In this document: piece by piece, positions 1,325 through 17,912 of the stretch
Position numbering within the stretch: position 1 is the stretch's first letter
Layout of the letters: each line of letters begins with the position of its first letter
Assembly: GCA_965215565.1 (NCBI GenBank)
Contig: CBDCDZ010000004.1
Span: forward strand, 2,304,001-2,368,000
Source of the DNA: Trueperaceae bacterium
GTDB lineage: Bacteria; Deinococcota; Deinococci; Deinococcales; Trueperaceae
Length of the DNA stretch: 64,000 nucleotides
Direction of reading: 5' to 3'
Notes under the pieces: model-generated
The model's input: only the letters and a program-made list of their open reading frames with translations
Database searches by the model: none
Told to the model about the DNA's origin: nothing
Position numbers and translations under genes: made by a program

Positions 1325-2284
1325 ATGTTACGCACCGCGCTCTATATCTATTTGTTTGCACTCTGCCTCTATCTTGTCTTGCGCTTTGCTTTCGGGGACA
1401 GTCTATGGTGGCTGTCTCTGCTCAACACCTTCGCACCGCTGCTCTTTTTACCCCTGCTCGCAGTTCTGCCCGTCGCTTGGTTCAAGGGTTGGCGCTGGTG
1501 CTCGGCGTTCACTGGCCTCCTCATCAGTGCAGGCTTGCTCTGGTTTGGCCCAGTTATCTCACTGAGCAGTAAGGACGAATCGGCGGGAGAAACACTCGAG
1601 GTCATCACCTATAACATGCGTATCACTTCTGAGGAAGTGGAGCCTTGGTTACGGCAAATAGACGCAGACGTCGTGATGTTACAAGAGGTGCCAGAAGGAT
1701 TGACGGAAGCGATTCCCACTTTACTCGAGCAATACCCCTACCAGCTAGACCAACCTGAGTGGAGCAATATGATTCTATCGCGTTATCCGCTGAGCGAAGC
1801 TGAAGCGGCGACCGATATACCTATGCAGCGTGCCGAGGCAAATATTGACGGGCGCAGAATTGCGCTCTACAACGTTCACTTTCGGTGGCCTATCGGCGAG
1901 CCTCGCTTCTCATTCTTGCCCTGGTTCGAAGTCAACGCTTTTTCACGCTACGATGACAAGGTGAGAAATCAGCAGATTGAGACGCTGATAGGTCAGTTGC
2001 AAAGAGAGTCTCTGCCTTACATCGTGGCGGGAGATTTCAACATGAGCCAGCACGCCGCTATATACGGGCGCGTGGCTGAGGTGATGCAAGACGCTTTTCG
2101 TGAAGCGGGAAGAGGTTGGGGGAACACGTGGCCGACTGAGTTGCAGAGCGGTTTACCTGTTCCGCTTTTGCTGAGGCTCGACTATATTTGGCACAGTGAG
2201 GCTTTTACTACGCAAGAGGTTGGGCGCGGTCCTGAGCTAGCGTCGGATCATCTGCCTGTTCATGCGGCGCTCGAGCTGCGCTGA
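1325..2284 (+). CDS. Membrane-anchored endonuclease/exonuclease/phosphatase family protein
   Basis: N-terminal TM helices; TYN, LQE, GDFN, LDY, SDH motifs. Confidence 0.9.
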   Translation: MLRTALYIYLFALCLYLVLRFAFGDSLWWLSLLNTFAPLLFLPLLAVLPVAWFKGWRWCSAFTGLLISAGLLWFGPVISLSSKDESAGETLEVITYNMRITSEEVEPWLRQIDADVVMLQEVPEGLTEAIPTLLEQYPYQLDQPEWSNMILSRYPLSEAEAATDIPMQRAEANIDGRRIALYNVHFRWPIGEPRFSFLPWFEVNAFSRYDDKVRNQQIETLIGQLQRESLPYIVAGDFNMSQHAAIYGRVAEVMQDAFREAGRGWGNTWPTELQSGLPVPLLLRLDYIWHSEAFTTQEVGRGPELASDHLPVHAALELR

Positions 2285-2299
2285 CCAAAAGAAAAAGAG

Positions 2300-2322
2300 A
2301 AGGCGGACTTTCGTCCGCCCTT
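2300..2322. terminator. Hairpin between convergent genes (probable terminator)
   Basis: GGCGGAC-TTTC-GTCCGCC with an A-rich tract on the left (U-tract on the minus strand). Confidence 0.6.
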
Positions 2323-2342
2323 AATAGCCAGAGATTGAGCTT

Positions 2343-3521
2343 CTAAGCGAGCGCCACCGCCATCGCCAACGCCTCACCGCCGCCGATGCAGATTGACGCC
2401 ATGCCGCGCTCCTGGTCACGCTGCTTCATTGCGTGCAGGAGCGTTACGACGATGCGCGTACCCGACGCACCGATAGGGTGACCTAACGCCACCGCGCCGC
2501 CATGCACATTGATCTGGTCGTGCGAGATGCCGAACTCCTCCATCGCCGCCATGCTCACCACAGCAAAGGCTTCGTTGACCTCAAAGAGCCCGTAGTCTTC
2601 GGGCTTGGTTCCTTGCTTTTCAAAGAGCTTTTTCATCGCGCCGACCGGCGCGATAGTAAACCACTCGGGGTCGATCGCGTTGGCGGCGTAGCCTTCGATG
2701 GTGGCGAGAATGGGCATTCCGTTCGCCTTAGCATACTCGTCACTCGTGACGACAACCGCTGCTGCCCCATCGTTGATGCCCGAGGCGTTCGCCGCTGTCA
2801 CGCTGCCGCCGTCGCGCTTAAACGCAGGGCGCAGCTTAGAGATTTTATCATTGTTGAGTTTTGAAGGCTCCTCATCTTCAGAAATCACGGTGACGTCGCC
2901 CTTGCGCCCCGTGACCTCGACCGAGACCATCTCATCGTCGAAGCCGCCGTCCTTGTTCGCTTTAGCGGCGCGTTCGTAGGACGCTGTGGCGAACTCATCC
3001 TGGTCTTCGCGGCTGAAGTTGTATTTATCCGCACACATCTCTGCGCACGCACCCATGTGCTTGTCGTTGTAGACGTCCCATAAGCCGTCGTTCACCATGT
3101 GGTCTACGAGCTGTTTGTCCCCCATCTTCAAACCGCCCCTAGCCCCGGGGACGAGGTAGGGCGCGTTGGTCATGGACTCCATGCCGCCCGCGACGACGAC
3201 GTTGGCGTCGCCTACCATGACCGCTCTCGCCGCTTGAATGATCGACTCCATGCCGCTGCCGCAGACCTTACTGACGGTGACCGTCGGCGTGTGCTCGCTA
3301 AGCCCGGCGTAGATCGTCGCCTGGCGCGCGGGGGCTTGACCCATGCCTGCGGGGAGCACGTTGCCCATGTAGACCATGTCCACGTGATCGTTCTCGACTC
3401 CGGCGCGGCGCACGGCCTCTTTGATGGCGGCTGCGCCAATTTCAGACGCTTTGAGCGGGGAAAGAACGCCTTGAAAGGACCCGAAGGGGGTGCGGACTGC
3501 GGACGCGATAACTGCTTTCAT
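2343..3521 (-). CDS. atoB: Acetyl-CoA C-acetyltransferase (thiolase)
   Basis: KVCGSG, NEAF, GHPIGASG, CIGGG thiolase motifs; GGAGG RBS. Confidence 0.95.
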   Translation of the reverse strand: MKAVIASAVRTPFGSFQGVLSPLKASEIGAAAIKEAVRRAGVENDHVDMVYMGNVLPAGMGQAPARQATIYAGLSEHTPTVTVSKVCGSGMESIIQAARAVMVGDANVVVAGGMESMTNAPYLVPGARGGLKMGDKQLVDHMVNDGLWDVYNDKHMGACAEMCADKYNFSREDQDEFATASYERAAKANKDGGFDDEMVSVEVTGRKGDVTVISEDEEPSKLNNDKISKLRPAFKRDGGSVTAANASGINDGAAAVVVTSDEYAKANGMPILATIEGYAANAIDPEWFTIAPVGAMKKLFEKQGTKPEDYGLFEVNEAFAVVSMAAMEEFGISHDQINVHGGAVALGHPIGASGTRIVVTLLHAMKQRDQERGMASICIGGGEALAMAVALA

Positions 3522-3990
3522 TGTTGCCTCCTCTTGAATTTGTGCTCAAAGTAGAGTAATCTCTACTACGTTTTCAGGTTGTCGTTACAGAGAGAGTATA
3601 GCCAAAAGGTAGAGCGAGACCTGTTGCTGAGACTCTATTTGGTACACATACGGTTCGGCTCTACGTACCTGCCACTGCATCTTCACCTCCGCACATTCAC
3701 CACTGCATATCCATCACTTCCTTCGGAGAAGCCGCCAACAAAAACGGGTACCTCGAAATAGTCAAGAGGTATTCCAAAGCGCTCGAGTCCTCGGCACCTT
3801 TTCTAATCCCTCGTCATGCGAAATTCTGTACAGGTGCTCGCACGCACGTTATTTCCATTATCCTAATTTTAGAGCGCGCCGGGTCCCCCGCTTCGTGCGA
3901 GGTTGTCCTTGTACGCAAAGGCAGGCAACACGTCGCACCGAACCGAGACGAGGCTCGCCAGATGACCTACATCTAAGAGGAGTAAAGAGA

Positions 3991-5646
3991 ATGACCAACA
4001 AATTACATGTGGCGCTTGGCGTCCTTCTACTCGTGTTTCTAGCCTCTTGCGGGGCGTCTGTTCCATCAGACAACCCTGCTGACCTCGAGCCTTCGGCGGC
4101 GAACCTCATTCGAAATGGCGACTTTCAGAGCGGCGCGGACGGTTGGGCTGTTCTCGCCAACCGTGAGAAGACCCTGTCCTACTCGGATAACGGGGTGGAC
4201 GAGTACGGGCGCTACTGCGTCTGGGTTGGTGACGGGGGGAGCGAGCCCTACGACATCTACCTCTATCAGAGAGACCTCGAGCTGAGAAAGAACGCTACCT
4301 ATACCCTGAATTTCAGCGCCCTTACAGGAAACAGCGGAACAGCTCGGTTCAGCGTCAAGGTAGGCGGCTCTTCGGGCGACTTCACGCCCTACAGCACTAG
4401 CGCGCATGAGGTAGCGGGCGGCGAGAAGCAGGCGAAGCAGATCACGTTTTCAGTAGCAGAAGACGCGGCGGCGCAGCTCGAGTTTCAGCTAGGGGGAAAG
4501 TCCGAGCCCCAGTATTTCTGCTTCGACGATGTTTCGCTGAGCGCGGCGGGGCAAAGCGGCGCAGAGGGCGGTGAGAATGACGGTGCGGAGAATGAAGACG
4601 CCGCTGGCGTGACATTGCGCGAGCTAGCGGACGCTAAAGGCGTGCTCATCGGCGCGGCTCTTAGGGCTGATCCGCTACGCAATGAGGCGGCTTACCGAGA
4701 GATTGCCGGGCGTGAATTCAACCTGCTCTTTCCCGAGGGCAGCTTCCTCATCTCGGAGATGCACACGGCGCAAGACCCCTACAGCTTGTCCCATGACCTC
4801 ACTGACCTGGACTATCAGATTGACTTCGCCCTTGATAACGGCGCACAAGTGCAGGCGTTTCACCTCGTGTGGTTTTTAGAGGCGAGTTGGGCTCCGTGGC
4901 TTAACAACATTCCTCAAGACAGACGCCGGGAGTTTATCCGCAAGCGCATCCGCGACGTGATGACCCGCTACGACGGCAAAGTCAACGCCTATAACGTCGT
5001 CAACGAGGCGTTCGAAAAAGACGGCACGCTGCGCGGCGCGACCTCGCAGGGCACCAAAAACTGGCTCTACGAGGAGAATCCAGAGGAACCTTACGGCTAC
5101 ATCGAGTACAGCTTTAGAGAAGCGCGTAACGCTGATCCTGACGCCAAACTCTTCTACAATGATTTCGGCATGGAGTTTGACGGTCCCAAGTGGGACGCGG
5201 TGCTCGAGATGGTCACCGACTTCAAAGCGCGCGGCGTACCGATTGACGGCGTCGGCTTTCAGGGTCACCTCAACATGAAGTGGGGTCCGCTGCCCGACCC
5301 CGCCGAGCTAACCGAGCGTATGCGGCAGCTTGACGCGCTAGGGCTCGAGGCGCGCATCACCGAGTTCGACGTAGGCATCGAAACAGGCGGTCAGTGGGTG
5401 CACGAGAACAAGAGCGAGGCGGAACGCTTAGCTATCCAGACGCAGTATTATAAGGACTACCTTAACGTCTGCTTAGAGGCTCCTAACTGCACCACCTTTG
5501 CGACGTGGGGCTTTACCGACAAGCACTCGTGGATTACTCAAGAGAGGTGGGGCGGCTCGCCTGCAGCGAAACCCCTTCCTTATGATACAAATTACCAGGC
5601 TAAAGAGGCTTATGGCGCGCTGCAAGACGCGCTGCTAGGACGCTAA
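3991..5646 (+). CDS. Lipoprotein GH10 endo-1,4-beta-xylanase with N-terminal CBM4/9-like module
   Basis: Start moved to ATG 3991 (GAGGAG RBS); lipobox LASC; VVNE acid/base, YND, GFQGH, ITEFD nucleophile, TWGFTD motifs. Confidence 0.9.
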
Positions 5647-7196
5647 TGCCCATTCTCCGACACCGACGCAATCAAGTCCTGCTTGAGATGGTAGAGCTTC
5701 TCGGTGAGCGATACGTGGTAGATGTGCGGGTTGACCAGCCGCTTCACCCCCGAGTTGAGGTGCGCCACGTCCCGCTCACGCTGTTCACGCATCCCCTCGA
5801 TGTCGGGCAAATCGCAAACGAGCTTGCCCTCCTCGAGCACGTCTATGAGCAGGGGCTCGACGCGGCTTATACTTTCCGGGCGGAGGGCGCGGCGCTTCGT
5901 CGCGTCCGAGGGGTGATAGAGCGCCAAGCGCTCCCCTTCTTGCGGCGTCTCGTCCGCGAGACCGACTAAGTCCGCTGTCGCATTGCCCCGAGCGTCGTAG
6001 ACGCGCCAGACGCGCTTGTTGCCGGGATTGGGCGTTTTGGCGGGCGAGTCTGAGACTTTGATGGCGGGCTGCCAATCGCCCCCGTCACGCACCGACACGA
6101 GTTTGTAAACGCCGCCTAGGGAAGGGTCACCTTCGGAGGTGATGAGCCGCGTGCCGACGCCGTAGGTGAGGCGTTCCATGAGCGCGTTCGGATCGACGCC
6201 GTACGAGGACGCTTCTTGGGCAATCTGCGTCAAAATCTGCCAGATGACGAGTTCGTCCAAGTTGCTCGACAGCACGATGGACACGTCGGGAAAGCCCGCA
6301 TCGTCGAGCATCTTCGCTGCTTGAATGCTCAAGTACGCCAAATCGCCCGAGTCGAGGCGGACGCCCACGGGCTGATGACCTTTGCGTTTAAGCTCTTCAA
6401 ACACCACAATGGCGTTTGGCACGCCGCTGTGAAGCGTGTCTACCGTGTCGACGAGGAGCAGACATTCGTCGGGATAGGTCTCGGCGTAGGCGCGAAAGGC
6501 GTCCTCTTCACCCATGCCCAGCGCGAGAAAGACCTGCACCATGCTGTGCGCGTGGGTGCCTTTGGGGGGGTAGCCTAAAACGCTCGAGACCCCCGTGTTC
6601 GAGCTGAAGTCCGCCCCGCCGATAAGCGCCGCCCGCGTGCCCGCGTTCGCCCCCTTGTCCTGGGCGCGGCGCATCCCGAACTCCAAGAGGAGCCCGCTTC
6701 TCGCGCTATCTCTGATCCGCGCCGTTTTCGTCGCGATGAGCGTTTGATAGTTGAGTTGCGCCAAAAGCGCGGTCTCCAAAAGCTGCGCGATGATTAAAGG
6801 ACCCTCCACTACCGTCAGCGGCGTATGTGGATGGACCACGCGCCCCTCGGGAACCGCTCGCAGGGTCAGACTTTCAAACGTGCCATGTTTGCGCAACCAC
6901 GCCAAAAAGTCGTTACTGAAAAGTTGCGCTCCGGTACGCCCCTTTTGTGAGCGCAAGTGCTCGACCTCTTGCTCAGAAATGCGCGCCTCGTTCATCCAGT
7001 CGAGCAGCCAGCCCAGCCCCGCATTCACGCAAAAGCCCGCCTGGTGCGTGCCGTAGTTCGGGTACTCGCGGAAGAAGTGATCGAACTGCGCGGTTTTCTC
7101 GTGCAAACCCATACGGTAGTAAAGCTGCGCCATCGTGAGCTGGTAGAAGTCGGTAAAAAGGAAGCCTTCGGCGATGCGCCGCTCTTGGAAGGTCAT
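5643..7196 (-). CDS. pncB: Nicotinate phosphoribosyltransferase
   Basis: [35 protein letters not shown] motifs; start moved to ATG 7196. Confidence 0.95.
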
Positions 7197-7258
7197 GGCT
7201 ATAGCATGACATAAAAAGCATGACATAGAACTAGAGAGGTGAGCGAGACCACATTTGT

Positions 7259-7287
7259 AGCAATGAGTTCCGAGCAATGAGCAATCC
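7259..7287 (+). repeat. GCAATGA heptamer repeat arm (inverted partner at 7933-7957)
   Basis: AGCAATGAGTTCCGAGCAATGAGCAAT; same element intact at 19906-19999. Confidence 0.7.
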
Positions 7288-7290
7288 AGT

Positions 7291-7365
7291 CGAGCTGGTT
7301 ATGTAATCTCGCGTAGCGAACGATTACGAAGTTTTCGCGGAGGCGAAACGGTGAGTCTAAAGCTT
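7291..7365 (+). repeat. ~75 bp direct repeat, copy 1, flanking the IS1 remnant
   Basis: CGAGCTGGT..TATGTAATCTCGCGTAG..GATTACGAAGTTTTCGCGGAGGCGAAACGG..GAGTCTAAAGCTT; copy 2 at 7841-7929. Confidence 0.85.
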
Positions 7366-7840
7366 GGTAGTGGCTCAACACGAACTGCTAAGCTAAGGGA
7401 TGGTTACTCAGACAGTACAGTGTTATCACTGCGGCAGCGAGAACGTAAAGAAGAACGGCAAAGCCCCTAATGGCAAACAGCGCTACCACTGTAAGGAATG
7501 CAACCGAGCGAGTTTAGAGAACCCAAATTACGGCTACAGTAAAGAGAGAAAGGAAGAGATTCTTAAAGCTTATCAAGAGCGCTCTAGTATGCGCGGTGTC
7601 GCTAGAACGTTTGGGATATCACGTAACACACTGGACGCCTGGCTCAAAAAAAGCCAAGATAACGCCTCCCCTTAGCGATACACTCATAGCTCCTAAAGTA
7701 CCTGAGCTGTAGAGCTTGAACACGTTTGTAAGCTGCAAAGCTAAAAAGCTCTGGATATGGCTGGCTCTTTGCCAGACCAGGCAAGTCGTTGCTTGCGTCA
7801 TAGGAGGACGCGGTAGCGCTACCAAGAAGCTTTGGGGCAA
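7366..7840 (+). mobile_element. Truncated IS1-family element (intact InsA-like ORF 7400-7675, degraded InsB)
   Basis: GGTAGTG left end; CxxC...KNGK..GKQRYxCKEC zinc finger plus HTH; A7G slippery site at 7646-7653; InsB remnant WIWLAL..TRQVVA..IG.R with stop and truncation. Confidence 0.85.
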
Positions 7841-7929
7841 CGAGCTGGTCTCGTCTTATGTAATCTCGCGTAGGCTGCGAACTGGATTACGAAGTTTTCG
7901 CGGAGGCGAAACGGTTGAGTCTAAAGCTT
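7841..7929 (+). repeat. Direct repeat, copy 2, flanking the IS1 remnant
   Basis: Near-identical to 7291-7365 with small insertions. Confidence 0.85.
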
Positions 7930-8130
7930 TTCACTCATTGCTCGTTGCTCATTGCTTTCAACTTCTCTACGCTTTTAACTTCTCTATTGCAAAGATATTC
8001 ACGTCGTATTCACGCAATTTCAGGCCAGACCCGATCTATTGACCTCTTCTATTAAGATTGTGTTAAGGTATCGAAATTAGCCCCCGTCACAATCCTCTCC
8101 TCACAACTCACCGGGCTAAAGGAGGTCAAG

Positions 8131-8562
8131 ATGGCTGCAACTTTATTAGTTGGCATCGACGGCAGCGAGTGTGCCGCACGCGCGGCGGACTTCGCTGCCG
8201 GGCACGCTCAGCAGATCGGCGCTGAGTTGCACCTCGTCGGGGTCATCGAGTGGTCGAACTACGCCTTTTTGACACCCGAAGAGCTGGAGACGCGGCACAA
8301 GGACCGCGAGGAAGACGAAGAGCGAGCGAATCAGGTGTTGACGCCCCTTAAAGAGCAGTTGGCTCAAAACGGGGTCAACGTTCGGACCTCGGTGCGCTTC
8401 GGTCACCCGGCAAAGATTATGAGAGAGGTCGCTGAAGAGGAAGGGGTGAGCCAGATTTTTATAGGAAGACATGGACGCTCGAGGTTTGAAACCGCCCTCT
8501 TTGGCAGCGTCACGAACAGAATTTTACAGCTCGCGCCCGTTCCCGTGACGGTTGTTCCCTGA
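8131..8562 (+). CDS. Universal stress protein
   Basis: LVGIDGS, GxP, GRHG, FGSV, PVPVTVV motifs; AAGGAGG RBS. Confidence 0.92.
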   Translation: MAATLLVGIDGSECAARAADFAAGHAQQIGAELHLVGVIEWSNYAFLTPEELETRHKDREEDEERANQVLTPLKEQLAQNGVNVRTSVRFGHPAKIMREVAEEEGVSQIFIGRHGRSRFETALFGSVTNRILQLAPVPVTVVP

Positions 8563-8636
8563 TGCTCTCCCCCGTATCTTCTCCCGCGTCACAAGGCTCC
8601 AAGTTCTCGCGTCTTTATCTCTTTAGGAGGTCATGG

Positions 8637-10208
8637 GTGAAACGTTCGTACAGACTACTCGCAGTGTTACTGAGCCTGCTTATGATAGCAGCCGCGTTTG
8701 CACAGGAAGAGGAAGGCGGGGGCGGCATTGACGCGGCGATCAACAGCATTCTCTCGCCCGCCGCCAACTTTCTCTCCGCCATCGTCTTCTTCGCTATTCC
8801 GTTGGGAGGCGGCGCAGAACTACCTATCATCGTTGTGTGGCTCATCGTCGCGGCGGTCTTTTTCACCTTTTACTTTAACTTCATCAACTTTCGCTCCACC
8901 CCGCAGGCGTGGCGGCTCATTCGGGGCGACTACTACAACAAAGACGACGCAGGCGAGGTCACGCACTTTCAGGCGCTCGCCACCGCGCTTTCGGGCACCG
9001 TCGGGCTCGGTAACATCGCGGGCGTTGCGGTAGCGATTTCACTAGGCGGACCGGGCGCTACTTTCTGGATGATCGTCGCCGGGCTTTTTAGCATGGCGAC
9101 GAAGTTTGTCGAGTGTACGCTAGGCGTCAAGTACCGCCGCGAGAACGAGGACGGCACCGTCTCGGGCGGACCGATGCACTACCTCAGCAAAGGACTCGCG
9201 GGCAAGGGCAGAGAGGGCTTAGGTAAGGGTCTGGCGACCTTTTTCGCCATCTGCTGTATCGGCGCGTCACTAGGCGGCGGCAACGCCTTCCAGTCGAACC
9301 AAGCGTTTCAGCAACTCGTCAACGTTACGGGCGACCAGGCGTCCTGGTGGGCGGACAAGGGTTGGCTCTTCGGTCTTATCGTCGCGATTCTTATCGGCAT
9401 CGTCATCCTCGGCGGCATCAAGAGCATCGCGAAAGTCACTGAAAAAATTGTTCCCTTTATGGGCATCACGTACGTGCTTGCGGCACTTGTCATCCTCATC
9501 GCGAACTACCAGCAGATTCCAGAGGCGTTCGGGGCTATCTTCACGGGTGCGTTCACGGGCGCAGGCATCACGGGCGGCTTCGTCGGCGTGCTCATCCAGG
9601 GTTTCCGCCGCGCCGCGTTCTCCAACGAGGCAGGTCTTGGCTCCTCAGCCATCGCCCACTCCGCCGTGCAGACGGATGAGCCCATCACCGAAGGTCTCGT
9701 CGCGCTGCACGAGCCCTTCATCGACACGGTCGTGGTGTGCACCATGACCGCGCTTATCATCGTGATCACCGGAGTTTACACCCAAGGCGACTTAGGCGGC
9801 GTACAGCTTACCTCGGCGGCGTTCGCGGCGAACATAAGCTGGTTCCCCTACATCCTCGCGCTCGCCGTGATTCTGTTCGCGTTTTCCACCATGCTCTCGT
9901 GGTCGTACTACGGCGTGAAAGCGACGACGTACCTCTTCGGTGAGGGAGCCATGAAAGAGAACATCTACAAAGCCATCTTCTGCGTGTTTGTCATCTTGGG
10001 CGCAACGATCAGCTTGGACGCGGTGTTGGCCTTTTCCGACTCGATGATCTTCCTCATGTCCCTCCCTAACGTCATCGGACTCTACATCCTCGCGCCCGAG
10101 ATCAAGACGGCGCTCAACTCCTACTGGGAACGCATCCAAAGTGGCGAGATCAAGACGCAGGCGGAGCGGCAGCAGTTGCAGGGGGCGAGTCAAGGCGCGA
10201 GCGACTAG
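8637..10208 (+). CDS. Alanine/glycine:cation symporter (AGCS family)
   Basis: GTVGLGNIAGVA, GGPGA.FWM, GGPM, FSNEAGLGS, IDT.VVC motifs; start moved to GTG 8637 (AGGAGG 6 nt upstream). Confidence 0.93.
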   Translation: MKRSYRLLAVLLSLLMIAAAFAQEEEGGGGIDAAINSILSPAANFLSAIVFFAIPLGGGAELPIIVVWLIVAAVFFTFYFNFINFRSTPQAWRLIRGDYYNKDDAGEVTHFQALATALSGTVGLGNIAGVAVAISLGGPGATFWMIVAGLFSMATKFVECTLGVKYRRENEDGTVSGGPMHYLSKGLAGKGREGLGKGLATFFAICCIGASLGGGNAFQSNQAFQQLVNVTGDQASWWADKGWLFGLIVAILIGIVILGGIKSIAKVTEKIVPFMGITYVLAALVILIANYQQIPEAFGAIFTGAFTGAGITGGFVGVLIQGFRRAAFSNEAGLGSSAIAHSAVQTDEPITEGLVALHEPFIDTVVVCTMTALIIVITGVYTQGDLGGVQLTSAAFAANISWFPYILALAVILFAFSTMLSWSYYGVKATTYLFGEGAMKENIYKAIFCVFVILGATISLDAVLAFSDSMIFLMSLPNVIGLYILAPEIKTALNSYWERIQSGEIKTQAERQQLQGASQGASD

Positions 10209-13815: not shown

Positions 13816-14643
13816 TCAGCGCCGGAACTGAAAGTTCCCCGCCGCGCCCATCCAACTTACCGCGAGGGGTTCGCGCAAGCTGACCCACTGCGGCAGCAAG
13901 ATGACGCCCGACACGGGCGCGTCCGGGCTCAGTTGCCCCGCGTCCCCCTCTAAAATGCTCAGGTTAAAAGGTGCCTTCGCCGTGAAGCGCTGCCCCCCTT
14001 GCGAAAAGGTTACGTCGGCTTGCCACGAGGTAGGCGCGAGCGAGGTGACGACGAAGTAGAGCGGTCTGTAACCTTCGACCTCATCTAAAAAATCGTCCAG
14101 AGCGAGGCGTTCGTTCGGCAGGGCGAGGGAAAGGAGCCCGGCGTCCACTAAGAGGAGCGAGGTCTCGGCGCGGGCGGGACCCCACCCGTACAGCATCAAG
14201 CCCGACACCCCGCGCCCTAACGAAACGGCTTCCGAACGGTTGCTTTGACGGGGCGATGAAAGCGTACGGACGCGCACACGCAACGTTTTCCCATCAGGTA
14301 ACGTCACGCGCTCTTCAGTCACTTTGATATTAAGGAGCGCAAAGGCGTCAGGCGGCGCGTACCACCCTTGGGCGACCGGCGCAGAGAGGCTGGCGTTATC
14401 CTCTTGCCGTCTGCCTTGCGCACTTTGCCACAGCACGTCGGGCGAACCTACGAACACGGTGAGGATGCCCGCAGGCGTGCGCACGGTCAGACCGTTCGCG
14501 CTCGCGCTCGAGCTGTACCCCGCCGCTCGCGCCACCTCTTCAAGCGAGGGAAAGGTCTCCTCTGCGCGCTTAATTGCCGACACGCTCTGCGCTTGGGAAA
14601 AGCTATAGAGGAGTAAAAAGAGGGTGAAAAGAACGCGCTTCAT
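13816..14643 (-). CDS. Secreted hypothetical protein
   Basis: 275 aa with a signal peptide (SQA-Q). Confidence 0.75.
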   Translation of the reverse strand: MKRVLFTLFLLLYSFSQAQSVSAIKRAEETFPSLEEVARAAGYSSSASANGLTVRTPAGILTVFVGSPDVLWQSAQGRRQEDNASLSAPVAQGWYAPPDAFALLNIKVTEERVTLPDGKTLRVRVRTLSSPRQSNRSEAVSLGRGVSGLMLYGWGPARAETSLLLVDAGLLSLALPNERLALDDFLDEVEGYRPLYFVVTSLAPTSWQADVTFSQGGQRFTAKAPFNLSILEGDAGQLSPDAPVSGVILLPQWVSLREPLAVSWMGAAGNFQFRR

Positions 14644-14910
14644 TGCCGCCTAGCCTAGCAAGTCCACGGAGATGAAGAGACGGAAAAGTTCATCTTCGCA
14701 CCCTCTCTCGTCCGAGATTTGCTATAGTAGATTCATCGTGATCCAGAGGTTGACTTTTGGCTTCTAAGCCTGCACACCAGCGAGGATTATCATAGTCCCC
14801 TCGCGCCGTGCTGCACTGGGCTTAGCTGCCCTCTTCTCTGCTGTTCCCTTAAAAAATTCACTTGGCTTGCTCTCCCGTATCCGACGGGCGAGGGCGTAAA
14901 GGAGTGTCCT

Positions 14911-16623
14911 ATTAACAAGGTCCACGGCAAACTTTCAGGTCTCAAGAAAAACCAGGTTAAACGCCTCAGCAACCTCTACCGCCGCAAGGTGGAGCCGAGC
15001 ATGGCGGTAAGTCTAGAACTCGCGAGGGCACTGGGCGAGCTTTCGCTCGAACTCAACAAGCCCGTCTCTGTTTTAGTAGACAGACGTGGGCGCGTCGTCA
15101 CCGTCGCGGTGGGCGACGCGCAAGAGACGCCGCTGCCCCCGCTCGCGGGCGAAGCCGAGTCGCGCCTCTACGGTCTGCGGCTCGTCCACACGCACCTCAA
15201 ACCGGGTGGGCTCTCAGGCGGCGACCTCTCGGCGCTCTTTTTGAACCGCTTGGACGCGGTGATCGCGGTGGACGTTTTCGAGAATAACAAGGGCAGCACC
15301 GAACTCGGCGACGTTCACTTCGCCCAGGTCGCGCCGCCGACCTCTTCGGAGGAGGACTGGGTCATCGAGCCGCCTATGCGCATCCGCGAGGCGGAAGGGC
15401 TGGACATCCTAGACCTCATCCGCTCGTTGGAAGAGGAACTCGCCCGTAGCGCCAACGCCCGCGAGACCACGCGCACCTCGAAAGAGCGCGCAGTCCTCAT
15501 CGGGCTCAACACGGGCGAAAGCGCCTTTGAGAGCGACGCCCGCTTGGACGAACTCGCCGAACTCACCCGCAGCGCTGGCGCGACGGTGGCGGTTATGAGC
15601 CGTCAGCAGCGTAGCAGCCCCGATCCGCGCACGCTCATCGGGCGCGGCAAGCTGCAGGAGTTGGTCTCCAAGGCGTACCACGAAGACGCCGACCTCCTCA
15701 TCTTCGACCGCGAACTCAACCCCGCGCAGGCGCGCGAGATCGCCGAGGAGACGAAGCTCAAGGTCTTGGACCGGACGCAGCTTATCCTAGACATCTTCGC
15801 GCAGAACGCCCAGGGGCGCGAGGCGCAGGTGCAAGTCGAGCTGGCGCAGCTTCAGTATCAGGTGACGCGCCTCTCGGGGCGCGGTCAAGCGATGAGCCGT
15901 TTGGGTGGCGGCATCGGCACGAGAGGTCCGGGCGAGACAAAGCTCGAGGTGGACCGCCGCCGCATCCGCGACCGCATCACAGCGCTCGAGGGGGAAGTAG
16001 ACGACATCTCGAAGCGCCGCAGCGAAAAGCGCAAGGGGCGCACGCAGTCCGAGGTGCCGGTTGTCGCCCTAGTTGGTTACACGAACGCGGGGAAGTCCAC
16101 GCTCTTTAACGCGGTTTCGAAGTCCGAAGTCTTGAGCCAGAACAAGCTCTTCGCGACGCTCCGCCCCACGACGCGCGAAGGCTGGCTGCCCGCCTTGGGC
16201 GAGTGGGGTGCGAAAGTCCTCTACACCGACACGGTGGGGTTCATTCGCGACTTGCCGGGCGAACTGGTCAACGCCTTTCGCGCGACCTTAGAGGAGCTTC
16301 ACGACGCGGACATCTTGCTGCACGTCGTGGACGCGGCGACGCCCGGCGCACCGGACAGAGTCACAGCGGTCAACCGAATCTTGGACGAGTTAGGGCTCGA
16401 GGTCTCGCGCACCGTCGTCCTCAACAAGGCTGACCTCGCGGACAAGCCAACCCTCTGTCAGCTAGAGGAGCGCTACGACGCGCTGAGCGTTTCCGCCGCG
16501 ACGGGCGCAGGCTTAGACGCCCTCAAAGCTCACCTCGCTAAGCTCATTGAGGGACCGGAACACGTGCCCTTGCCCAGCGACGAACACGCGGCGTACGGAG
16601 TGGTCAACGCTTCCTACGACTAG
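14911..16623 (+). CDS. hflX: GTPase HflX (long N-terminal form), predicted ATT start
   Basis: GIGTRGPGETKLE, GYTNAGKST, LFATL, DTVGF, NKAD; in-frame ATT 6 nt after AAGGAG adds INKVHGKLSGLKKNQVKRLSNLYRRK. Confidence 0.93.
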   Translation: MNKVHGKLSGLKKNQVKRLSNLYRRKVEPSMAVSLELARALGELSLELNKPVSVLVDRRGRVVTVAVGDAQETPLPPLAGEAESRLYGLRLVHTHLKPGGLSGGDLSALFLNRLDAVIAVDVFENNKGSTELGDVHFAQVAPPTSSEEDWVIEPPMRIREAEGLDILDLIRSLEEELARSANARETTRTSKERAVLIGLNTGESAFESDARLDELAELTRSAGATVAVMSRQQRSSPDPRTLIGRGKLQELVSKAYHEDADLLIFDRELNPAQAREIAEETKLKVLDRTQLILDIFAQNAQGREAQVQVELAQLQYQVTRLSGRGQAMSRLGGGIGTRGPGETKLEVDRRRIRDRITALEGEVDDISKRRSEKRKGRTQSEVPVVALVGYTNAGKSTLFNAVSKSEVLSQNKLFATLRPTTREGWLPALGEWGAKVLYTDTVGFIRDLPGELVNAFRATLEELHDADILLHVVDAATPGAPDRVTAVNRILDELGLEVSRTVVLNKADLADKPTLCQLEERYDALSVSAATGAGLDALKAHLAKLIEGPEHVPLPSDEHAAYGVVNASYD

Positions 16624-16970: not shown

Positions 16971-17912
16971 CTACTGCCGCTCGACTCTGACGATTTCAGC
17001 CACCTTGTAACCGCCGCGCAACTCCGACGTGTAGATGAAGTCGCGTCCGTTCGGCAGGTACGCGATCGCTTCTTGTTGCGGGAGCTGCGCGGCGTTTAGG
17101 ACAGCGTAGTCTTCCCCCTCTACCATCTCGCGGCTCGCTTTGAGGGGTTCGCCCGAGAGGTCGGTGTAGAACTCGAGCACGTCTCGGTAGGTCAGCACTA
17201 AAAACGCGCTGCCGTCCGGCGAGATGTCCATCGAGGTAGCGACGCTGCCTAAAGTCGTGCCGCTGAGCTTAGAGAGGTCCAGTTCGCCGACGAAGGTGAG
17301 CGTCTGCGGCTCGGCGTCGGGCGCAGCTCTGATACGCTCGTGCGAAATCTTGTAAAGCCTGGCTGGAGCAGGTAGGAGCAAGTACACGCGCCACGACTTG
17401 CTCAAGAGGTAGAGGTCGCCGTTCGGGTGGACCGCCATCGCCTCGACGTCGTGCTTGCCGTCAGGGAAGCGCAGCTTGAGGTGCTTGTAGAAGTCGGTGC
17501 GCTTCGAAAACACCTCTTCTTCCGGGACGTAGACCACGTCGATATCGTCGCGGTTGCGCCGGTTGTCGCCGATGTTGCCCATGTAGAGGCAGCTCGACGC
17601 GCCGCAGGGTCCTAGCGTCAACTCCTCCATATCCTTAAAGGTGCGCTTCACGTCGTTGATCTGCGACTCTCTTAACGACGTGCCGCGCATGTCCGTATAG
17701 TAAAAGTTGAAACCGCGACTGCCCGAGTCGTTGATGTGGTAGAGCCTGTCGGGGAAGCGCTGTGAGACAGCGACGCCGCTCGCCTCGCCGAGCAGCTCGG
17801 GGTCCAATGTGCCTAAAACTGTGCTCGGCAGCAGGGGCACGTCCCCTCTGCCGCTGAGCGAAGTCAGCAAGGTGAGCCCGGCAAACGTGAAGAGAAAGAG
17901 GCGGCGCAACAC
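16971..17912 (-). CDS. Exported hypothetical protein (probable beta-propeller)
   Basis: Signal/anchor sequence; EASG, HINDSG, DMEE, IGDN, DVEA, QEAI repeats typical of a propeller-type family. Confidence 0.75.
   Translation of the reverse strand: MLRRLFLFTFAGLTLLTSLSGRGDVPLLPSTVLGTLDPELLGEASGVAVSQRFPDRLYHINDSGSRGFNFYYTDMRGTSLRESQINDVKRTFKDMEELTLGPCGASSCLYMGNIGDNRRNRDDIDVVYVPEEEVFSKRTDFYKHLKLRFPDGKHDVEAMAVHPNGDLYLLSKSWRVYLLLPAPARLYKISHERIRAAPDAEPQTLTFVGELDLSKLSGTTLGSVATSMDISPDGSAFLVLTYRDVLEFYTDLSGEPLKASREMVEGEDYAVLNAAQLPQQEAIAYLPNGRDFIYTSELRGGYKVAEIVRVERQ

Follow-up and report, generated by a model that had tools for sequence, protein, structure and literature searches.

The hflX gene in the 64,000-nt stretch of a Trueperaceae genome analysed here (below, the window) almost certainly initiates translation at ATT (14911–14913, plus strand), as comparative evidence indicates. 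The resulting long-form coding sequence (14911–16623, plus strand) runs from this ATT to TAG at 16623 and would yield a protein of 570 aa; its 26 N-terminal codons (14911–14988, plus strand), supported by conservation and by a structural model, are lost if GTG at 14989 is called as the start. The non-canonical start of hflX appears to be undescribed, and we have found no report on the hflX start codon in the literature searched, mostly open papers; the kind of start, infC-like, is already known.

The hflX locus and its start codon

The protein matches the HflX family TIGR03156 at residues 193–545 (15487–16545, plus strand) with 428.8 bits against a cut-off of 216.75, and this core carries three Pfam domains, GTP-bdg_N, GTP-bdg_M and MMR_HSR1, preceded by about 190 extra N-terminal residues. 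The gene is single-copy in the genome. Riboflavin genes lie upstream of it on the minus strand, and the flanking ORFs at 13816–14643 (minus strand, 275 aa) and 16971–17912 (minus strand, 313 aa) match no Pfam or NCBIfam family.

The first-pass annotation of this DNA had pointed to a perfect AAGGAG 6 nt before an in-frame ATT, and this layout is found exactly: AAGGAG at 14899–14904, the spacer TGTCCT, and ATT at 14911–14913. The Shine–Dalgarno (SD) sequence AAAGGAG (14898–14904, plus strand) is predicted to form a duplex of –8.3 kcal/mol with the 16S tail of the same genome. The upstream in-frame stop is TAG at 14728, and from there to GTG at 14989 the frame contains no ATG, GTG or TTG; the only near-start codons past this stop are ATT at 14731 and CTG at 14770, both lacking an SD. 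Genome-wide, an SD hexamer followed by ATT at 5–9 nt occurs at the 5′ ends of 29 long frames against 11.6 expected. Taken alone, the motif is therefore a modest excess over chance, and the predicted ATT start is decided by conservation.

A sequencing error has been ruled out as the source of the ATT. It is present at the hflX start in both congeners, and contigs of the runs X1 and X2 differ from region 14600–15200 in no letter, so no ATG emerges at 14911 (the two runs come from one sample, possibly the source of the assembly, and are not independent of it).

A genome-wide habit of ATH starts was considered and rejected, as the SD-anchored excess is about 400 for ATG, GTG and TTG versus about 30 for ATH, duplicates included. 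Several other putative unusual starts were noted. In the genome of the window, infC has ATA and rpsL has CTG, as in Deinococcus; for dnaA, an in-frame ATG is available and ATC seems dispensable. A PhoH-family gene (G000:C4:4046467, minus strand) has ATC behind AAGGAG; ATC, ATA or ATT is found in all 16 loci of this family of bacteria (two by eye; L279, L281–L295, L305), and no ATH start is seen at that position in nine loci from other families. The aspartate kinase gene (G000:C4:1995996, plus strand; L280) has ATT 7 nt past AAGGAGG, with GTG two codons further on.

Conservation of the weak start

The N-terminal part of the protein was matched in 299 of the 301 Deinococcota genomes searched, and hflX was fetched from 134 of them (the best matches plus picks spreading over genera); one locus at a contig end was dropped, leaving 133. 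Codon 1, homologous to ATT 14911, is ATA in 45 genomes, ATC in 44, TTG in 11, GTG in 10, ATT in nine, ACG in seven and ATG in seven. It is always of a start type, ATA/ATC/ATT/ACG in 105 cases and ATG/GTG/TTG in 28. GTC, GTT and CTC, which are present at internal hydrophobic columns, never occur here, and given that the codons would read as Ile, Thr, Leu, Val or Met, being a start-type codon is their sole common property.

The distribution differs between families. All 56 loci of family f1, to which the window belongs (ATC 31, ATA 20, ATT 5), and all 35 of f2 (ATA 22, ATC 11, ATT 2) are non-canonical, and f5 has ACG in seven, ATC in two and ATA in one; f3 is mixed (ATT 2, ATA 2, ATG 4), and all 24 loci of f4 are canonical (TTG 11, GTG 10, ATG 3). 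Families f2, f4 and f3 seem to be Deinococcaceae, Thermaceae and Marinithermaceae, respectively. Exclusion of the unpublished genome G252 (locus L038, ATC) gives 104 of 132 non-canonical loci, 55 of 55 in f1, and 22 of 32 for the leader ORF considered below, leaving the conclusions unaffected. In f2, ATA makes up 22 of 35 starts and only 11 of the 877 internal Ile codons (1.3%) of the same genes.

Conservation of the protein begins at codon 1, column entropy falling from 3.3–4.1 bits upstream to 0–1.6 bits at residues 1–6. Residues 3–25 are strongly conserved, and Gly6, Leu22, Tyr23 and Arg25 are invariant in all 133 genomes. The 26 added residues are thus the conserved N-terminus of long-form HflX that the first-pass annotation had proposed, and the extension is present in the 133 orthologues compared. 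Among the 105 non-canonical loci, 48 have an in-frame stop no more than ten codons upstream and lack a canonical start in between, and in 36 codons 2–31 contain no canonical codon at all.

Published Deinococcus deserti data bear on the same question. HflX of this species is Deide_19040, for which PMC4007540 gives a mapped transcription start site (TSS) 246 nt before the annotated start, with a –10 box; the GTG used as the annotated start appears to correspond to homologous codon 4. A tryptic peptide covering homologous residues 26–39 and preceded by Arg was recorded twice, with scores of 22 and 39 (PMC4007540). It therefore excludes a start equivalent to 14989 in D. deserti, one of the two internal sites (14989 and 15001) weighed in the first-pass annotation, and is still compatible with GTG at codon 4. 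An N-terminal HflX peptide is found neither among 12 peptides in the supplements of PMC2830850 that were searched nor among the 23 rows listed from PMC4007540.

Translation from elsewhere (GTG 14989, ATG 15001, codon 4 or a site far upstream), with the Ile codon internal or untranslated, would agree with this missing peptide and with the codon-4 annotation in the D. deserti material covered, as well as with two features of the 105 non-canonical loci: GTG stands at codon 4 in 15 of them, and 16 have a canonical codon no more than ten codons upstream. These alternatives, however, vary in position, codon 4 in the window being GTC, and they leave unexplained the strong conservation of residues 3–25 and the occurrence of ATG, GTG or TTG at exactly codon 1 in 28 genomes, while the D. 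deserti peptide rules out codon 27. We consider this explanation extremely improbable; an upstream canonical start and an internal Ile have been ruled out by the in-frame codon content, by conservation, and by the alternatives being unconserved.

In five loci (L056, L060, L116, L117, L207) ATC or ATA is found with no SD and with a –10 box 5–6 nt upstream, possibly reflecting leaderless non-AUG initiation. Genus g14 of f4 has TTG 9 nt past a –10 box, a near-leaderless layout.

Changes of codon 1 were traced by parsimony over a tree built with FastTree from 132 full-length proteins, leaving out one partial sequence and the start column. There are 28–29 changes among non-canonical codons and two to canonical ones, the root being reconstructed as ATA or ATC. 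For comparison, 29 invariant four-fold columns show 672 third-base changes that start from A, C or T within the non-canonical clades, canonical clades being excluded, and 313 of these (47%) yield G. At most two canonical outcomes in 31 changes correspond to P ~1e-6 at this rate, and to 5e-4 at a flat one third. Since the start codon always gives fMet, selection would act on initiation and not on the residue, and the weak hflX start has very probably been kept by it.

A scan of GTDB with a degenerate motif yielded at least 117 stretches, of which 106 contain long-form hflX, nine do not, and two are at an edge; after removal of three Deinococcota-like loci, 103 loci from other phyla remained among the matches listed. 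The scan is biased by its own motif and towards long-form hflX, and its listed matches include no named cyanobacterium and one Firmicute; their sources are Desulfobacterota, Acidobacteriota, Nitrospirota, Myxococcota, Entotheonella, Heliobacteriaceae, Seleniivibrio and others. Codon 1 is ATC in 29, ATT in 21, ATA in 20, CTG in two, ATG in 24, GTG in four and TTG in three of these matches, that is, non-canonical in 72 of the 103 listed; the position is exact in 86, and in 17 a start-like codon displaced by one or two codons, the nearest available, was taken.

The strength of the SD depends on the codon. Among the listed matches from other phyla, an SD of –4.5 or better precedes all 70 ATH starts and only seven of the 24 ATG starts, with median energies of –9.4 and –2.2, respectively; the Deinococcota medians are –9.3 for ATH and –2.2 for ATG. 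The SD is weaker on the ATG side in nine of nine independent pairs of ATG and non-canonical loci. Judged from these sequences, hflX genes have either a good SD or a good codon and seldom combine the two.

That annotation misses this start, as had been suspected, is supported by 120 database homologues: 117 are over-extended or cut by varying lengths. The names of the three beginning at the right residue are NCBI ones, which indicates that annotation aware of homology does at times recover the long-form start. Long-form HflX cloned from such records (117 of 120 sampled) would lose or gain N-terminal residues beside an uncharacterised domain.

The extra N-terminal domain and the hflX leader

This extra domain, approximately residues 27–165 (14989–15405, plus strand), has a predicted JAB/MPN-like fold, and its coding region begins at GTG 14989, the start that a gene finder picks. 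No Pfam or NCBIfam match was obtained for 14989–15405. An AlphaFold model of residues 1–190, built from a nine-sequence alignment, has pLDDT 86.9; residues 1–26, predicted as a strand (4–6) and a helix (13–24) with pLDDT 81–93, precede the MPN-matched part. Every row listed by Foldseek is an MPN-domain chain (best E 5e-4, TM 0.32), and VIA-align gives a best Z of 6.3 (rmsd 3.7, 111 aligned) and RadC at Z 5.7; the matches are individually weak by both methods. The modelled domain thus resembles JAB/MPN domains weakly but consistently.

It contains a His-x-His…Ser-x-x-Asp metal motif, with His93, His95 and Asp105 each present in 131 of 133 Deinococcota and in 95–96 of the 99 others among the matches listed. 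The His-x-His…Asp spacing is, we believe, one residue shorter than in the JAMM motif. Column 51, which we take to be the site of the catalytic Glu of JAMM, is Pro in the window, Glu in 45 of 133 Deinococcota and Gln in 97 of the 99 others listed; the putative catalytic Glu is absent here. No report linking HflX with JAB was found in the literature searched, mostly open papers.

Upstream of the gene, an extended –10 box TGcTATAGT (14720–14728, plus strand; both congeners have TATAAT at this position) is the predicted hflX promoter, with transcription starting near 14735 and a leader of about 175 nt. A sigma-70 scan requiring a –35 box returned nothing in the leader. In one of the congeners (L002) the leader is lengthened by an insertion of some 105 nt directly before the SD.

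Nine nucleotides past the –10 box lies a candidate leader ORF, VIQRLTFGF (14738–14767, plus strand), consisting of GTG, eight further codons and TAA, with no SD. All three genomes of the genus agree in its length and end, and its start codon alternates between GTG and ATG. In f1, an ORF of 5–20 codons is found 8–12 nt past 23 of 33 strong –10 hexamers located 120–320 nt upstream of hflX, versus 180 of 2177 for the same combination genome-wide in the genome of the window; in other f1 genera the ORF has 7–18 codons. In genus g12 of f2, a six-codon ORF starts 9 nt past a –10-like box in 11 of the 17 loci for which 1.5 kb upstream was available; residue 2 is hydrophobic and residue 3 Lys or Asn, and ATG/GTG and TGA/TAA are exchanged. 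None was seen in seven loci with 300 nt upstream, and beyond Deinococcota the leader ORF follows 0 of 20 hexamers. The patterns were set after the first cases had been seen, and related genomes are not independent. Leader ORFs are recorded in L002, L003, L016, L123–L127, L131, L133, L137, L139 and L141. By likeness, the mapped D. deserti TSS would have a similar leader context.

The leader contains no intrinsic terminator that we could find; its predicted fold (z –1.16) is no better than that of shuffled sequences, and masking of the leader ORF barely changes accessibility of the ribosome-binding site (RBS) in 10 of 12 leaders, with no RBS switch predicted from it. The RLR-type arrest motif, as in rli80, is absent from the ORF of the window and from the 11 six-codon ORFs, Rfam gave a single chance match (E 0.71), and no report on the Deinococcus hflX leader was found in the literature searched, mostly open papers. 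We regard the ORF as a candidate leader peptide, a lead and not an established attenuator; it points to a possible undescribed control element on hflX mRNA.

Possible role of the weak start and comparison with known systems

On balance, and with limited confidence, we favor the possibility that the weak start makes HflX output depend on start-codon proofreading by IF3. AAAGGAG would be the docking site of the 30S subunit, from which the 570-residue protein would be started at AUU 14911, with fMet-tRNA reading AUU, AUC, AUA or ACG at this position in different genomes. IF3 would reject most such initiation complexes, keeping HflX scarce, and a shortage of free IF3 compared with 30S subunits would raise HflX along with IF3. 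Under this proposal hflX would be co-regulated with infC rather than form a closed loop, and the leader ORF in Trueperaceae would likely add a second, ribosome-sensing layer upstream. Repression by IF3 has been described for Streptomyces sigR, which has a GTC start (PMC5472188). Leaderless initiation is inhibited by IF3 (PMC9031893), and hence some hflX forms with ATG and no SD may stay IF3-sensitive.

The feedback loop suggested in the first-pass annotation is possible and not our default reading. By reasoning, ribosomes split by HflX would release 30S subunits over which IF3 is spread more thinly, a positive coupling; the feedback would turn negative only if HflX retained 50S and delayed subunit joining. 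A joint reading goes further: long-form hflX would join infC as the second gene of pan-bacterial extent in a subunit-handling regulon that is read by IF3 (and here also includes rpsL and the PhoH-family gene), with an HflX self-loop in which 50S is held, joining slows and IF3 has time to reject AUU, while the leader peptide of Trueperaceae and Deinococcus gates the mRNA, so that HflX is made only when ribosome stalling coincides with lax proofreading by IF3. As a whole, we regard it as unlikely.

In 30 Deinococcota, infC starts with ATA in 20, ATT in three, ATC in two and GTA in five. The five GTA genomes belong to f5, the family where hflX has ACG, and the apparent GTA stands behind a strong SD in each (L323, L325, L326, L330, L335). 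Where hflX is canonical, infC stays non-canonical in 10 of 10 Deinococcota and 12 of 13 other genomes (infC had no match in five of 30 outside genomes), so the two starts are not tied; covariation between them was sought and not found except in f5, a single lineage. According to PMC5499595, AUA in an extract of E. coli from rich medium gives 0.95 of AUG and barely responds to IF3, AUU alone responding clearly. ATT makes up nine of the 133 Deinococcota hflX starts, and AUA is the commonest (45).

Every sequence result here also fits plain damping. The ATT start may be a fixed damper that senses nothing and keeps a ribosome-splitting enzyme scarce, stress control being transcriptional or exerted via the leader ORF. 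A strong SD with a poor codon and ATG with no SD would be two low-output routes, and ATH would persist because leaving it needs two coordinated changes. Absence of covariation with infC agrees with damping, as does the description of the ebpA ATT start as an output attenuator (PMC4447247). On the other hand, a weak SD would be an easy damper, yet 105 of 133 Deinococcota loci and 72 of 103 listed matches elsewhere have retained a strong SD together with the odd codon. In E. coli it is IF3 that damps such codons (PMC5499595), some IF3 dependence being hard to avoid. A fixed damper is, in our view, rather unlikely to be the full explanation.

Stress data were considered as well. Upon irradiation of D. 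deserti, hflX reads rise from 2222 to 9506 at the TSS and from 568 to 1917 in the gene body (PMC4007540). Induction thus appears at the TSS, as a fixed damper would have it, and a translational switch is unnecessary for it; radiation-controlled read-through, also considered, is not seen in these TSS and gene-body reads. In D. radiodurans, HflX protein increases with mitomycin C independently of IrrE (PMC8533742). This rise on genotoxic stress runs against a further explanation, where the odd start senses the nutrient state via ppGpp, IF2 or initiator tRNA and lowers HflX in starvation. The latter accounts for ATA, hardly affected by IF3, given that nutrient limitation or ppGpp penalised all non-AUG mRNAs in E. 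coli extracts, AUA falling to 0.56 of AUG (PMC5499595), but this is a single in vitro system from another phylum, and we deem the explanation quite improbable. Regulation through IF3 remains the reading that we prefer.

Several known systems resemble hflX. Leader-peptide attenuation by rli80 is reported for Listeria hflXr (PMC6310831), and attenuation by the hexapeptide MsrDL for msrD (bioRxiv 10.1101/2021.11.29.470318). The common feature is a short ORF ahead of a ribosome-rescue gene, in Deinococcus-like genomes also of six codons; unlike these systems, the hflX leader has no RLR motif, intrinsic terminators and RBS switches were sought in it and not found, and its ORF is near-leaderless. 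ATT starts are also reported for E. faecalis ebpA (PMC4447247) and E. coli pcnB (PMC2830850). Like sigR, ebpA and pcnB, hflX is a non-initiation-factor gene with a rare start, sigR being a case of IF3 repression of a stress gene; those examples are genus-level and experimental, whereas hflX spans phyla and is known from sequences. In Deinococcus, odd starts include dnaA (ATC), rpsL (CTG), infC (ATA) and Deide_03051 (Baudet et al., 2010; PMC2830850), a paper whose main text does not name hflX. Phylum and codon class are shared with hflX, but the hflX pattern reaches far outside the phylum.

A further close parallel is infC with its AUU/AUA/AUC start and translational autocontrol (Butler et al., 1987, as cited in PMC2830850; PMC5499595). 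Both genes have an SD-led ATH start across phyla and a product that keeps ribosomal subunits apart. Unlike IF3, HflX is not a proofreader, so any loop would be indirect; its SD is weaker (median about –9 versus –11 to –18 kcal/mol, in slightly different windows), and in some lineages hflX has returned to a canonical start, unlike infC in those checked. To our knowledge, conserved non-AUG starts in bacteria concern few genes, and across phyla mainly infC. A second cross-phylum case, on a ribosome-splitting factor, would allow for a direct test of whether initiation senses subunit supply, and genetically tractable Deinococcus suits such a test.
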